Origin: Sulfuricaulis sp.
GTDB lineage: Bacteria; Pseudomonadota; Gammaproteobacteria; Acidiferrobacterales; Sulfurifustaceae
Assembly (NCBI RefSeq): GCF_024653915.1
Contig: NZ_JANLGY010000017.1
Span: 51,088 to 115,087 of the forward strand
Direction: 5' to 3'
DNA length: 64,000 nt
Within the stretch, counting starts at the first letter, position 1; every line of letters starts with the position of its first letter. This document shows, piece after piece, positions 3 through 48,612 of the stretch. Under the pieces are notes generated by a model. That model worked only from the letters and a program-made list of their open reading frames with translations, was not told where the DNA came from and did no database searches. Made by a program: the position numbers and the translations under genes.

Positions 3-227
3 CGTGTCACGCATCGTTCTCTGTTCGATGGCACGGTGCAGGGGTTGCAACGCACCGACAAGCCGGCGTTCTGTTTCCAGGGGCATCCGGAAGCCAGCCC
101 TGGCCCGCATGATGTTTCACCTTTGTTTGATCGCTTCATTGAATCGATGAATCAGAACCAAACCACAGGGAGCACGGGGAAGACTTCCGTTCAACCCGCA
201 TCTCCGCGTGCCCCTGTAGTCAAATAA
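3..227 (+). CDS. carA: Carbamoyl-phosphate synthase small subunit, 3' end (truncated by window edge)
   Basis: Reads [14 protein letters not shown]...[15 protein letters not shown], the conserved CarA C-terminal glutaminase motif; directly upstream of carB. Confidence 0.96.
161..222. repeat. Inverted repeat with 9-nt-periodic arms (CACRGGGRR units) inside the carA 3' end
   Basis: Left arm aaccacagggagcacgggga (161-180); imperfect right arm tccgcgtgcccctgtagt (203-220). Confidence 0.8.
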
Positions 228-7814: not shown

Positions 7815-9173
7815 ATGAGCCATAAACGCCGTTTTTTCGGCACCGATGGTATCCGCGGGAAAGTAGGTGAAGAACCGATCACGCCGGAAACCGTGCTCAA
7901 GCTTGGCTGGGCGGCGGGTCGTGTGCTGGGCCAGGGATCGACCGAACACGCTGTAATTCTGATTGGAAAGGACACGCGCGTTTCCGGTTACCTGCTGGAG
8001 TCCCTGCTCGAAGCCGGTCTCTCGGCCGCCGGGGTAGACATCCGTCTGCTCGGACCGATGCCGACACCCGCCATTGCCTATCTGACTCGCACGGCCCGTG
8101 CCCGTGCCGGCATTGTAATTTCAGCCTCGCACAATCCATTCGATGACAACGGCATCAAGTTTTTTTCCTCCGAGGGTACCAAGCTGCCGGATGATGTTGA
8201 GTTCGCTATTGAAGACATGATGCAACAGCCGCTGGCGACCGCTGGACCCGATGCACTGGGCAAGGCTTGGCGCTACGAAGATGCCGGAGGACGCTACATC
8301 GAATTTTGCAAAAGCACCTTCCCCCACCGTTTGAGTCTGGAAGGACTCAAGATTGTCGTGGACTGTGCGAACGGGGCGGCCTATCACATCGCGCCCCTTG
8401 TATTCAGCGAACTCGGTGCTGAAGTCGTGGCGGTGGCGAATGAGCCTGACGGCTTCAACATAAACCACGAATGTGGCGCCACCTTTCCGATTTTTCTCAA
8501 GAAGACCGTGCTGGCGCACAAGGCCGATCTCGGTATTGCGTTGGACGGTGACGGCGACCGGGTGATCATGGTCGATAGTCGAGGTGAAATCGTGGATGGC
8601 GATCACCTGCTTTACATCATTGCCATGGACCGGAAGCAGTCAGGGCGGTTGCACGGCGGGGTGGTAGGCACGCTTATGAGCAATCTCGGACTGGAACACG
8701 CCTGCGGCAGACTGGGCGTTCCTTTCAAGCGCGCGGCGGTCGGCGATCGTCACGTGCTGAGCATGCTGAACGAACATGATTGGGAGTTGGGGGGTGAGAC
8801 TTCCGGCCATATCATTTGCCTCGATCGTTCCAGCACGGGTGATGGCATCATCGCTGCATTGCAGGTGCTGGCGGCCATGCGCGGGACCGGCAAGACCCTC
8901 GCCGATCTCAAAAGCGGTCTCGAGATTTATCCGCAGACCATGATCAATGTGCGCATGTCACGCCGTTTTGACGTCAAGGAATCACCGCGTGTGCAGCAGG
9001 CCCTCAAGGCAGTTGAAAATGAGCTGGCGGACAATGGACGCGTGGTACTGCGTGCTTCGGGCACCGAGCCGGTGGTGCGTGTCATGGTCGAGGGCCGCGA
9101 CGCCGTGCAGGTCGAGCGTCTGACCCGTCATCTCGCCGATACCGTGAAAAGCGCGGCCGAAGCCGCGGCGTGA
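7815..9173 (+). CDS. glmM: Phosphoglucosamine mutase
   Basis: [16 protein letters not shown] (phosphoserine), DGDGDR and GGETSGH motifs. Confidence 0.98.
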
Positions 9174-9185
9174 CGGAAAGAAATG

Positions 9186-9453
9186 AATAGACAGGATTTA
9201 CAGGGCGAAGCGGAGTAGTCGCCGATGTACTTAACGTACATCGGCGCCGCTGAGCGCCCGCACATGGATGTGCGGGCCGGGGAAAAACGAAGCCCTGCCG
9301 CGACGCCAGGGAAGGCATACTTGCCGTCCCTGGCGAGACCATGAAAACTTCGACATACTCGGCCCCGCCATCCGTGGCGGGGCGCTCGCCGGGACGAAGA
9401 CATGTTAAGTGTCTTCGTCTGTTTCCGGCTCGCCCTGCTTAATCCTGTCCATT
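9186..9453. repeat. ACAGGAT-type inverted repeat enclosing five internal hairpins (composite palindromic element)
   Basis: Outer arms aatagacaggatttacagggcg (9186-9207) and cgccctgcttaatcctgtccatt (9431-9453); internal stems at 9220-9246, 9256-9277, 9304-9335, 9362-9383 and 9393-9419. Confidence 0.9.
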
Positions 9454-9476
9454 TTCTGGTTTTTGCCTTTCTGAAA

Positions 9477-9505
9477 TTGCTTTCCCACGCCGGCATCGGT
9501 AACAT
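9477..9505 (+). promoter_or_regulatory. Putative sigma70 promoter of tpiA
   Basis: TTGCTT-17 bp-TAACAT followed by GC-rich CGCGCCC. Confidence 0.55.
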
Positions 9506-9551
9506 CGCGCCCGTTTTTCGAGAGATTTAAGACGAATATGGGGAGGTCCTG

Positions 9552-10310
9552 ATGACGAAGCGTCGGCCACTGGTGGCGGGCAATTGGAAGATGAATGGCT
9601 CGCGGACGGAATCTGCGGCCCTCCTGGACGGAATCAAAAAAGGCATCAGTTCCACGTCCAAGGCAGAAGCGGCTGTGTGCCCCCCGTATGTCCTGATACC
9701 GTTGGCGGCCGAGAAACTGGCCGGGAGTGCGGTGGCTTGGGGCGGGCAGAACCTGTCGGTGCATAAATCTGGCGCCTTTACCGGCGAGATCTCCGGTCCG
9801 ATGCTCAAGGATTACGGCTGTACTTATGTTATCGTCGGTCATTCCGAGCGTCGCACGCTGTATGGCGAAAATGACGCCATGGTGACTGAGAAGTACGGTG
9901 CGGCCCAAGCCGTGGGATTGATACCTATATTATGTGTTGGCGAGACCCTGCAGGAACGGGAAGCGAATCAGACCGAGGCGGTTGTAGCGCGCCAGCTTGA
10001 TGCCGTGCTGAGCAAGCATGGCATCGCCAGTTTCAAGAATGCCGTGATCGCTTATGAGCCCGTCTGGGCCATCGGCACTGGCAAGACGGCGACACCCCAG
10101 CAGGCCCAGGATGTGCACCGTTTTATCCGCAGCCGACTGGCGACCAAGGATAAAACCATAGCGGAAAGCACGCGCATTCTTTATGGCGGCAGCATGAAGG
10201 GCAGCAACGCGAAGGAGCTTCTGGCCCAGGCAGATATTGATGGGGGCTTGATCGGCGGGGCGTCGCTGCAAGCGGACGAGTTCCTGACGATTTGCCACGC
10301 AGCCGACTGA
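9552..10310 (+). CDS. tpiA: Triosephosphate isomerase
   Basis: VAGNWKMN, VGHSERR, AYEPVWAIGTG, LYGGS and LIGGASL motifs. Confidence 0.99.
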   Translation: MTKRRPLVAGNWKMNGSRTESAALLDGIKKGISSTSKAEAAVCPPYVLIPLAAEKLAGSAVAWGGQNLSVHKSGAFTGEISGPMLKDYGCTYVIVGHSERRTLYGENDAMVTEKYGAAQAVGLIPILCVGETLQEREANQTEAVVARQLDAVLSKHGIASFKNAVIAYEPVWAIGTGKTATPQQAQDVHRFIRSRLATKDKTIAESTRILYGGSMKGSNAKELLAQADIDGGLIGGASLQADEFLTICHAAD

Positions 10311-19702: not shown

Positions 19703-19796
19703 GAACCGCAGATAAACGCAGATGAACGCAGATCGAAGCAAAGAACCAATAGAGTTATTTTTTAATCTGCGTTTATCCGCGTTCATCTGCGGTTTC
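19703..19796. repeat. Inverted repeat with 10-nt-periodic arms (CGCAGATRAA x3)
   Basis: gaaccgcagataaacgcagatgaacgcagat (19703-19733) and atctgcgtttatccgcgttcatctgcggtttc (19765-19796), between nuoI and nuoJ. Confidence 0.92.
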
Positions 19797-28148: not shown

Positions 28149-28237
28149 AACCACGGGGGACACGGGGGAAGACATGAAAGTTAAGAATGACATTCCCGTT
28201 TTTCTGATACTTTTTACTCCCCGTGTTCCCCGTGGTT
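28149..28237. repeat. Inverted repeat with 9-nt-periodic arms (CACGGGGGA x2)
   Basis: aaccacgggggacacggggga (28149-28169) and tccccgtgttccccgtggtt (28218-28237). Confidence 0.9.
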
Positions 28238-33849: not shown

Positions 33850-33942
33850 AATAGACAGGATTTACAAGATTAACAGGATTACGGCTGGGCACGTTTTCTT
33901 TTAATCCTGTAAATCCTGTAAATCCTGTTAATCCTGTCCATT
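33850..33942. repeat. Inverted repeat with 9-nt-periodic arms (ACAGGATTW; 3 + 4 units)
   Basis: aatagacaggatttacaagattaacaggatta (33850-33881) and aatcctgtaaatcctgtaaatcctgttaatcctgtccatt (33903-33942). Confidence 0.93.
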
Positions 33943-33951
33943 TCCGTTCTT

Positions 33952-34323
33952 ATGCAAAAAGTTTCCAATCGGCCGCGACGTGTCGCGGAACTCATCCGGC
34001 GTGAACTTGCCATGCTCATCCCGCGCGAGCTCGACGATCCCAAGGCGCACCAGATCACGTTAACCGGCGTGGAAATGTCGCGCGACATGTCTTCCGCGCG
34101 AATCTATTTTTCTTTGTTGAGCGGTGCCGTGGAGGCGAAAAAGTTGACCAAGTCGCTCAACCGCGCCGCCGGATTTCTGCGGCATGTCCTCATGGGAAGG
34201 GTATCGTTGCGAAGCGTGCCGGTGCTGCGGTTTTATTTCGATGAATCGGTGGAACGTGGCGCGCGCATCGACAGCCTGATTGAACAGGCCATCACCGAAG
34301 ACCAGCAGACCAAAAATAAATAG
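33952..34323 (+). CDS. rbfA: Ribosome-binding factor A
   Basis: RPRRVAELIRREL, TGVEMSRDMSSARIY and VPVLRFYFDESVERG motifs. Confidence 0.97.
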   Translation: MQKVSNRPRRVAELIRRELAMLIPRELDDPKAHQITLTGVEMSRDMSSARIYFSLLSGAVEAKKLTKSLNRAAGFLRHVLMGRVSLRSVPVLRFYFDESVERGARIDSLIEQAITEDQQTKNK

Positions 34324-34415
34324 ACAGGATCAACAGGATTCAGCAGGATTAACAGGATTTTTGAAATTTTGAATCTTTAATCCTGTAAATCTTGAGTAAT
34401 CCTGTTAATCCTGTG
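34319..34415. repeat. Inverted repeat with 9-nt-periodic arms (ACAGGAT; 4 + 4 units) overlapping the rbfA stop
   Basis: aatagacaggatcaacaggattcagcaggattaacaggattt (34319-34360) and aatcctgtaaatcttgagtaatcctgttaatcctgtg (34379-34415). Confidence 0.92.
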
Positions 34416-42055: not shown

Positions 42056-42132
42056 AACCACAGATAAACACGGATAAAAAACTTCCGGGTTTTTATTGAA
42101 TAATCTGTGTTAATCCGTGTCCATCCGTGGTT
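42056..42132. repeat. Inverted repeat with 10-nt-periodic arms (CACRGATAAA; 2 + 3 units) abutting the trmD stop
   Basis: aaccacagataaacacggat (42056-42075) and atctgtgttaatccgtgtccatccgtggtt (42103-42132). Confidence 0.9.
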
Positions 42133-45421: not shown

Positions 45422-45499
45422 AACCACGGGGTCCACGGGGAGAAATGAATAGGATCATGCCTTCATCCCAGCCTGGTTTTCCCCGTGCTCCCCGTGGTT
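45422..45499. repeat. Inverted repeat with 9-nt-periodic arms (CACGGGG x2) just after the rep stop
   Basis: aaccacggggtccacgggga (45422-41) and tccccgtgctccccgtggtt (45480-99). Confidence 0.92.
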
Positions 45500-47615: not shown

Positions 47616-48521
47616 TCATTCCAGTTGCTCAAGAAAGTTTTTCATGCGTTCCCGCGTCGCGGCGGGTTTGTCCAGCAGCTGGCCAATGAGATCGAACAGG
47701 GCGTGGTGGCGGGAGCCGAACAACCGGTGGGCACGCACCATCTTCAGGGTGTGCACGCCTTCGCCTTCAAGCGCGCCGGTTTGGCCACGAACCAGCCGAC
47801 GACCCAGCTCGTGATGGTGGGAGCCCTTGCTGGTGGCCGTGGTAATCAGGTCGCCAAGGCCGGCGAGTCCGTGCGCCGCGCCCGCCGAACCGCCCAGACC
47901 GGTGACGATGCGCTCCAGCTCGTGCATGGCCGCCGTGGCAAGATAGCCCCGCATGTTGTCACCCAGGCCCAGCTCGTCTGCCACGCCGAACAGGATGGCG
48001 TAAACGTTCTTGAGCACGGCCGACCAGGAAATGCCCTCGGTGTCGGCGCTGTGTTCGAGGTAAAGCGAGGTACCGGCAAAGACATCGCGCAGGCGAGCAA
48101 AGATTTCAGCCCGTGCGGCGCCGGCTTGGGCGAAGGCCGGACGTCCGGCGCGGATTTCCTCCGAAATCATCGGTCCGTAAAGCACGGCAATTGGGGCTTC
48201 CGGACCCAGCGCTTGGGTAAGTGCCCGCGCCGCCGTGCGTCCCTCGTCGTCGAGCCCCTTGGCGATACTGACGCAGAACGTGTCCGGGCGCAGACGGGGC
48301 CGCAGCCGGGTGGCCAGCTCGAAATGGGGATTGGCCGGCAGACAGAAGATAATGATGTCCTGTTGTCCGGCGATGGATTCCAGTTCGACGGCAAGGCTGC
48401 CTGGTTGGGAGCGACGCTGCCAGACCGTGAGCGTGTGGCGCTGTTGCAGGAGGTATTCCATAGCCCGGCCCATTTCGCCGTGGCCGAGGATGAGGATTTG
48501 ATATTTATTTTTCACCGCCAA
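47616..48521 (-). CDS. NAD(P)H-dependent glycerol-3-phosphate dehydrogenase family protein (divergent GpsA-like)
   Basis: LGHGEMG dinucleotide motif, SIAKG, LKNVYAI and GLAGLGDLITT; start TTG 48521 or GTG 48515. Confidence 0.85.
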   Translation of the reverse strand: MAVKNKYQILILGHGEMGRAMEYLLQQRHTLTVWQRRSQPGSLAVELESIAGQQDIIIFCLPANPHFELATRLRPRLRPDTFCVSIAKGLDDEGRTAARALTQALGPEAPIAVLYGPMISEEIRAGRPAFAQAGAARAEIFARLRDVFAGTSLYLEHSADTEGISWSAVLKNVYAILFGVADELGLGDNMRGYLATAAMHELERIVTGLGGSAGAAHGLAGLGDLITTATSKGSHHHELGRRLVRGQTGALEGEGVHTLKMVRAHRLFGSRHHALFDLIGQLLDKPAATRERMKNFLEQLE

Positions 48522-48612
48522 GTCGCCAAGACGCCAAGAATTCAGAAAGTCTAACGAATCCCAGGGTTAAAATCCTGAATTTCATTGGCGTCCTTGGCGT
48601 CTTGGCGGTTAA
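48514..48612. repeat. Inverted repeat with 8-nt-periodic arms (CGCCAAGN x3) filling a divergent intergenic region
   Basis: accgccaagtcgccaagacgccaag (48514-38) and ttggcgtccttggcgtcttggcggttaa (48585-612). Confidence 0.92.

Follow-up and report, generated by a model that had tools for sequence, protein, structure and literature searches.

The spacer between glmM and tpiA in the stretch of Sulfuricaulis sp. DNA analysed here (64,000 nt of contig NZ_JANLGY010000017.1, hereafter the window) very probably contains, at 9174-9463, an inserted mosaic repeat. This repeat, non-coding and multi-copy in the genus Sulfuricaulis, consists of a foldback shell around two inverted, non-identical copies of a structured module that we call M. 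The element is of a known kind, the intergenic mosaic and foldback repeats, and is a new variant thereof: a bacterial assembly of a shell whose arms consist of fast-evolving tandem units and of a separate, inserted structured module, the cargo, which appears to move between shells in situ. A candidate non-coding RNA (ncRNA) is removed by this result, the spacer holding inserted repeat DNA that is missing in relatives. Below, G000 denotes this genome (2.73 Mb in 31 contigs, 99.8% complete), G014 S. limicola HA5 and G024 Sulfurifustis variabilis skN76; other G numbers are compared genomes, C numbers are contigs and L numbers inspected loci, and R1 is the covariance model of M. The locus is laid out as follows.

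7815-9173, plus strand: glmM (phosphoglucosamine mutase), stop codon TGA at 9171-9173; NCBIfam TIGR01455, 635 bits
9174-9189: left outer A-rich end of the insert, CGGAAAGAAATGAATA, missing in empty sites (empty-site alignment)
9186-9198 / 9441-9453: outer arms AATAGACAGGATT / AATCCTGTCCATT, 13 nt, 92% complementary, continued inward as CAGGGCGA.. / ..TCGCCCTG
9190-9204, plus strand: left arm, GACAGGATT followed by TACAGG, 1.5 units of the 9-nt ACAGGATTW, its final ..AGG touching M
9205-9317, plus strand: left copy of M (R1, 131.7 bits), in the order GCGAAGCGG, 5-bp basal helix (9209-9213 / 9247-9251), hairpin 1 (9220-9246, loop TTAAC), GAGC, hairpin 2 (9256-9277), variable stretch, CGCCAGGGAAGGCA
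9220-9230 / 9236-9246: hairpin 1, 11 bp, perfect
9256-9265 / 9268-9277: hairpin 2, 10 bp, perfect
9304-9335: hairpin 3, the junction of the inverted modules, whose 3' ends CGCCAGGGAAGGCA and TGCCGTCCCTGGCG pair together (9304-9317 / 9322-9335, 14 nt, 93%)
9322-9433, minus strand: right copy of M, inverted and of the other subtype (R1, 120.1 bits), containing hairpin 5 (9393-9419) with its basal helix and hairpin 4 (9362-9383)
9362-9370 / 9375-9383: hairpin 4, 9 bp, perfect
9393-9402 / 9410-9419: hairpin 5, 10 bp, perfect
9434-9449, minus strand: right arm CCTGCTTAATCCTGTC, the reverse complement of GACAGGATTAAGCAGG
9450-9463: right outer T-rich end of the insert, CATTTTCTGGTTTT (empty-site alignment)
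9471-9520, plus strand: conserved tpiA upstream block, found in all relatives with or without an inserted element, with a putative promoter (TTGCTT at 9477-9482, 17 nt, TAACAT at 9500-9505)
9552-10310, plus strand: tpiA (triose-phosphate isomerase); TIGR00419, 245 bits

The limits of the insert follow from relatives in which the site is empty. In G002, G008 and G018 the glmM stop codon is followed by about 8 nt and then by a conserved sequence (..TGAAATTGCATTC..GGCCGGCATCGGTAACATCGCGCCCGTTTTTC) that includes the putative -35 and -10 hexamers of tpiA, so that the insert of the window can be placed at about 9174-9463 and the tpiA upstream block is seen to be untouched. The glmM-tpiA site is a hotspot, and what lies there, between the glmM stop codon and the conserved tpiA upstream block as in the window, varies from one species to another:

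G002, G008 and G018: empty
G020 (closest relative; flanking genes 87-88% identical): a 136-nt foldback element with arms of CGCAAAG units
G016: a CGCCAAG-armed element with an AT-rich middle
G014: a CGCCAAG shell as in G016, with an identical right junction and one M as its middle
Further species: 0.6-10 kb of other DNA

An earlier note, made from the letters of the window, had described five hairpins inside an outer inverted repeat at 9186-9453, lying between glmM and tpiA and ending 23 nt before a tpiA promoter. Every one of the five stems is where it was placed, four of them perfectly paired, the enclosing repeat with its 13-nt arms is present, and the TIGR01455 and TIGR00419 profile matches bear out the two neighbouring genes. 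The suggestion that the stems lie beyond chance agrees with the folding of the whole spacer (9174-9551), for which we obtained -190.5 kcal/mol against -132.4 +/- 6.1 for 100 dinucleotide shuffles, none of which folded as well (0 of 100; z = -9.56). The span given for the structure does contain the hairpins but is somewhat shorter than the DNA missing from empty sites. As for the promoter, the arithmetic of the 23-nt spacing is right but the hexamers fail a simple sigma-70 consensus scan, and the sole support for them is the conservation of the block in G002, G008, G014, G016, G018 and G020.

Three intact copies of the composite were found in this genome, namely the one in the window, C17:86465-86745 (90% identical) and C29:29953-30229 (88%), and two left and two right half-copies lie exactly at contig ends (C2 and C19; C10 and C28), raising the number to at least five. 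The position of the half-copies implies that the repeat breaks the assembly; short-read assemblies are broken by such repeats, with four contig ends lying inside the element in this genome. The copies have unrelated flanks, and the indels that distinguish them are not multiples of three. A unit of about 268 nt with 86-91% identity is also present in G009, G010, G014, G015, G019 and G020, that is, in at least six other Sulfuricaulis species, and S. limicola (G014) harbors at least six full-length copies and two variant ones (the 268-nt copy of G019:C24, L036 / L061, in which a run of N hides part of hairpin 1, was left out of the alignments). The composite now propagates as one unit, its copies being 88-96% identical to one another. 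Matches to a 23-mer pattern in contigs of Acidobacteriota, Alphaproteobacteria and Bryobacterales extended over 25-26 nt only and were discarded as chance. A limited literature search returned no description of these Sulfuricaulis elements or of M, and the genome paper does not mention them.

The shell is one member of a larger family. GACAGGATT occurs 94 times in this genome where about 21 occurrences are expected, and ACAGGATT 307 times (about 83 expected) in 51 clusters, some 45 of which are elements of 60-110 bp made of two to four 9-nt units on the plus strand and then two to four on the minus strand. In S. limicola the arms gave 63 and 62 matches against none for a reversed control pattern. 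The arms are bordered on the outside by about 25 nt of A-rich, weakly conserved sequence, and the left outer end of the insert in the window (9174-9189) resembles, in composition, the A-rich flank at all ACAGGATT element ends (168 arm ends). The number of units per arm is 1.5 in the window copy, 1-4 in its sister copies and 2-4 in the short elements, and the build throughout is that of a periodic-arm foldback, with two inverted arrays of tandem units around a variable middle. Eight more foldback elements are present in the window (161-222, 19703-19796, 28149-28237, 33850-33942, 34319-34415, 42056-42132, 45422-45499 and 48514-48612), built on four tandem units (ACAGGATT, AACCGCAGAT, AACCACGGGG/AACCACAGAT and ACCGCCAAG). 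The type of foldback unit differs between species at orthologous sites.

Among known systems, miniature inverted-repeat transposable elements (MITEs) such as Correia of Neisseria, ERIC/IRU and RUP come to mind, which likewise measure 100-300 bp, have terminal inverted repeats and no open reading frame (ORF), exist in dozens of copies, are present or absent at orthologous sites and form a long hairpin when transcribed. Terminal inverted repeats, a small non-coding multi-copy unit with different flanks, and presence or absence at one site were all found for the element of the window, but an autonomous insertion sequence (IS) with the same ends was not, either in this genome or among the G014 matches listed. 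No target-site duplication was visible for the composite, although one of 2-3 bp could have escaped notice, and no parent IS was found; unlike MITEs, the element has ends that are arrays of tandem units and a cargo that changes in situ. The closest published architecture to the shell known to us is that of the eukaryotic Foldback (FB) transposons, which have long inverted ends made of short tandem repeats, as in the Tm1 Mutator/Foldback family (PMC3169594). The inverted ends contain a variable number of tandem sub-repeats in both cases, and the middle is variable and may hold unrelated cargo; the elements described here differ in being bacterial and about ten times smaller, in that the unit sequence differs at the same site, and in that no transposase is known for them.

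All three intact copies in this genome stand directly after a stop codon with co-directional genes on both sides, one of them in the opposite orientation. Since terminators sit at such positions, one could ask whether an element of mobile origin has been co-opted, be it as a 3'-end stabiliser, as a protein-binding array (given its periodic arms), or as a terminator or insulator that separates tpiA from the folP-glmM unit. Repetitive extragenic palindromic (REP) elements and bacterial interspersed mosaic elements (BIMEs) stabilise upstream mRNA, and a T-rich run (CATTTTCTGGTTTTT, 9450-9464) comes just after the outer stem. This T-rich stretch trails only the outermost stem, however, and a terminator scan of 9000-9650 found no hairpin followed by a T-run; in addition, the site is empty in three relatives, and the arm sequence is wholly different between species at the same site, which argues against one sequence-specific binding protein. 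We consider co-option unlikely, and nothing shows a function for the element at glmM-tpiA.

The cargo consists of two versions of M: 9205-9317, the left half, carries one in direct orientation and 9322-9433, the right half, the other in inverted orientation. The two are about 50% identical in a global MAFFT alignment, and by BLAST the element is 68-70% identical to its own reverse complement. The parts of M follow one another in the order GGG[C/T]GAG, 5-bp basal helix, hairpin A (loop CTTAACG), GAGC, hairpin B (GCCC....GGGC, loop YGGAWG), variable stretch and CGCCAGGGAYGGC, and it follows from this order that hairpins 1 and 2, and likewise 5 and 4, are hairpins A and B of two M copies. Hairpin 3 is the mere pairing of two inverted 3' ends and not an independent element; single modules lack it or form it with an arm unit. 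The view of the five hairpins as separate elements must be modified accordingly to two hairpins for each of two modules plus a junction. M on its own was found in numerous relatives and in further genera. The two copies are of different subtypes, with CGCCGATGTAC as hairpin A in one and GACGAAGACAC in the other, and since the identical subtype pair and junction are found in all dimers of all species, the M-M dimer arose once and was copied thereafter. In a 32-sequence alignment analysed with RNAalifold, 19 of the 29 predicted pairs have compensatory double changes while the loops are constant, with TGTAC/GTACA, TGCAC/GTGCA and TGCCC/GGGCA as variants of hairpin A and GCCGG/CCGGC, AGCGG/CCGCT and GTCAG/CTGAC as variants of the basal helix. 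The stems are nearly pure Watson-Crick: of about 1,560 pair cells, 13 are G-T and 6 A-C, a balance that gives no hint as to which strand, if any, acts as RNA.

Covarying stems with conserved loops and linkers are also what one finds in functional RNAs, and the predicted structure is very stable, so that the locus might encode a discrete structured ncRNA or a cis-acting 3'- or 5'-untranslated module regulating glmM or tpiA; a single multi-branched module of this sort was one of the two readings put forward in the earlier note. We regard it as very improbable. No Rfam family reached its gathering threshold in two scans of the region, the best scores in Rfam 15 being those of RsmW (23.5 bits, gathering score 52) and twister-sister (21.2 bits, gathering score 34). 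The element is absent from G002, G008 and G018 and replaced by unrelated ones in G020 and G016, from which it follows that glmM and tpiA do not need it, its copies adjoin unrelated genes in both orientations, and the non-Watson-Crick pairs show no strand bias. The likeness to twister-sister, which was on the antisense strand of M, was dropped after no match was obtained in 13 other M loci.

The other reading in that note, a stack of repeat elements in a BIME-like hotspot, is correct in the main: shared foldback arms, the occurrence of M alone and the hotspot itself all agree with it. The element is not a REP/BIME in the narrow sense; the link to a REP-associated tyrosine transposase (RAYT) was looked for and not found. 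Like the BIMEs and REPINs of Enterobacteria and Pseudomonas, the elements are intergenic, non-coding and multi-copy, are mosaics of palindromic units with inverted doublets, often stand just after stop codons and turn over quickly between species. In contrast to these, the units here are the 115-nt two-hairpin M and arms of tandem 9-mers rather than palindromes of 20-40 nt headed by GTAG or CGTC, the Y1/RAYT genes are flanked by other repeats, and R1 has no match in E. coli K-12. That M represents REP/BIME-type palindromes (REPINs) mobilised by a RAYT, i.e. a Y1 transposase, could be supposed from the Y1_Tnp genes in this genome, G014 and G024, from the inverted doublet of modules, and from a GTAG just 5' of hairpin 1 in the left module. 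The Y1 genes (230-237 aa), however, are flanked by inverted GGGGTCAGTACCCTT-type / GGGGTCAG..CCCTT repeats unrelated to M, and the IS200-like copy has its own hairpins; GTAG belongs to the left-type module only and is missing from the right module and most M copies, the conserved head being GGG[C/T]GAG; and M has a length of about 115 nt and two different hairpins, unlike a 20-40-nt palindrome. This explanation is largely refuted and retains hardly any probability. An ERIC-like identity of M was also rejected on the E. coli K-12 result. The Y1 genes, encoding an IS200-like/RAYT-like protein, are found at C9:255-947 and C8:1-750 of this genome and at L089 (G014:C1:1125776-1126102); two copies lie at contig starts, which suggests that the Y1 gene is itself repeated in the genome.

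M is the more valuable by-product of this study, being structured, class-wide, absent from Rfam and present in about one eighth of the sampled genomes. R1 gave 31 matches in this genome, 41 in G014 and 21 in Sulfurifustis (G024), and in an even sample of the class M was detected in 51 of 400 genomes and 45 of 320 genera (E <= 1e-6; scores up to 99 bits), with the same conserved linkers and loops in those distant matches that were checked by eye. In a phylum-wide sample, matches at E <= 1e-10 were confined to Gammaproteobacteria. M was encountered in four contexts: (a) within foldback shells whose units end in ACAGG, GCCAGG or CCAAGG; (b) near tRNA genes, one being located within about 200 nt in 8 of the 10 top distant loci fetched; (c) at ORF starts; and (d) exactly on ORF ends, where the TGA of GGGTGAG is the stop codon. 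Examples of the last are C19:126446-126597 of this genome (pstB-like), L111 (G014) and L129 (G158), both rpmJ-like, L138, L140 and L141 (three 6-6.7-Mb genomes of one genus) and L143; other ORFs ending on M are rimK-like, guaB-like and xerD-like, all of these names being our reading of the translated C-termini.

A direct duplication of the target (D) flanks M in contexts (b) and (c), in the arrangement D-M-(t)-D-rest of gene. The filler t, which separates M from the second D, is AT-rich, variable and about 8-20 nt long, and the intact target gene is preserved beside M by the duplication. D always ends in ..RGG, joined to the G[C/T]GAG of M, and corresponds to 16-30 nt of a tRNA 5' or 3' end, to 25-92 nt of an ORF start, or to other DNA of up to about 105 nt. 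Insertion is proved for the tRNA(TGT) locus by a series of empty sites: M is present in G000, G020, G016 and G014, and promoter and leader run straight into the tRNA in G007, G008, G003 and G019. In G065, from another family (L127, G065:C1:1015600-1017400), a single tRNA(CAT) gene has seven D-M-t units upstream and 2.5 inverted ones downstream, with two lengths of D (18 and about 29 nt), which points to repeated insertion into a regenerated target. Next to tRNA genes of this genome, single M copies are found at C12:16902-17026, C18:56119-56241, C28:20133-20256 and C11:156-279, each preceded by a 16-30-nt direct copy of the 5' or 3' end of that tRNA, ending in GG. The joint of ...GCTCAGTTGG with GTGAGC re-forms a D-arm-like GCTC/GAGC stem. 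A rough hand count in G014, with the origin assumed at position 1, gave no clear replication-strand bias of single modules.

In the composite, the 5' G[C/T]GAG of each M is joined to an arm at its ...ACAGG, and the 3' ends meet as the central hairpin. The composite may have originated from an ACAGGATT foldback element whose two arms were both invaded by M, which inserts 3' of RGG. Thereafter the M-M cargo would spread from one ACAGGATT element to another, for the most part through recombination or gene conversion in the homologous arms, and possibly also through whatever mobilises the shells. When the flanks of foreign 268-nt copies were mapped to this genome, three fell on empty sites, two on other arm families and three on short ACAGGATT elements. 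In two of these last three, a locus of this genome and one of another species can be aligned base by base across the right arm and the point where it joins the flank (C29:48738-48825 with G014:753006, and C5:30455-30538 with G019:C24:22909), so that the shell is orthologous and only the middle differs; the simplest reading would be that the M-M cargo was copied from one ACAGGATT shell into another by arm recombination. At glmM-tpiA the element would be selfish or neutral DNA, tolerated because its position is exactly between the stop codon of glmM and the tpiA upstream block, which is intact. Any glmM transcripts that read into it would acquire a very stable folded 3' end, as a by-product rather than a purpose.

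Several observations weigh against the picture of an inserted mosaic repeat whose cargo spreads between shells. No IS-sized pair of ACAGGATT arms exists in this genome, where all pairs are at most about 310 bp apart, or among the G014 matches listed, and a parent IS with shell ends was dropped for this reason. A target-site duplication of the composite is not apparent either, there being no direct repeat at the ends of five copies or in comparison with empty sites; with relatives that are 80-88% identical, a duplication of 2-3 bp could hide. No enzyme moving the shell or M was identified. At a third site with a short and a long form, C24:135329, alignment between the two species fails in the outer flanks, and repeated independent insertion into a hotspot could in part account for such pairs of a short and a long form. 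Stem covariation with conserved loops would also be expected of a functional RNA or of hairpins recognised by a protein. To call the element selfish, finally, is an inference from its distribution and not a demonstration.

As to M itself, we put forward tentatively, as a possibility rather than a probable conclusion, that it is a previously unrecognised small non-autonomous mobile element of Gammaproteobacteria. Such an element, about 115 nt long, would have two recognition hairpins and neither inverted ends nor an ORF, would insert 3' of RGG with target duplications from 16 to more than 100 bp, would bring its own TGA at ORF ends, would reinsert to give arrays, and would be moved in trans. 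The long duplications could explain how M lands in tRNA genes and ORF starts without destroying them. If this is true, the 268-nt element would be a vehicle in which two M modules hitch-hike inside a foldback shell.

The insertion signature is unusual in that the duplications of tRNA-gene ends and of ORF starts are long and variable and that the gene upstream receives a stop codon from M. Insertion sequences of the IS1634/IS1549 type are known for long, variable target duplications. M resembles them, and also elements that integrate into tRNA genes, in being flanked by direct copies, which take in 16-30 nt when a tRNA end is the target and up to about 105 nt with other target DNA, and in keeping the gene intact; it differs in that the inserted unit is only about 120-140 nt and is devoid of integrase, transposase and terminal inverted repeats, and in that M hits both tRNA ends as well as ORF starts and ORF ends and reinserts into arrays. 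Integrating genetic elements are described as making partial duplications of tRNA genes, attL and attR (Williams 2002, reviewed in PMC9897764). Candidate mechanisms for M are a transposase making long, variable duplications, site-specific recombination at RGG, and microhomology-mediated template switching. An RNA-mediated origin of the tRNA-end duplications, by template switching on mature-tRNA ends, was at first attractive, many of the duplications beginning at a tRNA terminus. It was rejected on two grounds: the profile RVT_1 (PF00078) of reverse transcriptase, an enzyme that a retroelement-derived repeat (SINE-like, retron or group II intron fragment) would likewise need, has no match in this 99.8%-complete genome (one in G014, three in G024), and in clear cases D reaches 4-16 nt past the tRNA into leader or flank, or extends for about 105 nt, which makes a duplication at the DNA level more likely. 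Elucidation of the mechanism would explain a class of partial tRNA-gene copies and of tandem arrays beside tRNA genes, and could also reveal a new recombination activity.

Tandem arrangements of M are seen at ORF starts too. At two Sulfurifustis loci, L094 (G024:C1:600100-720) and L054 (G024:C1:3713900-3714550), a unit made up of the beginning of an ORF (76-92 nt) and M occurs as 2.5 repeats. In L094 the truncated copy is in frame through M, and its TGA overlaps the ATG of the next copy (GGATGA), an arrangement that would allow translational coupling. In addition, a shorter M-like variant (GGGTGAG, a small hairpin, CGAACGCCCGGCC...) was found after ..AGG in the hairpin B loop of another M, at L053 (G014:C1:2616583-2617139), at C15:79671-79784 of this genome and at L109, which indicates that elements of the M type nest in each other.

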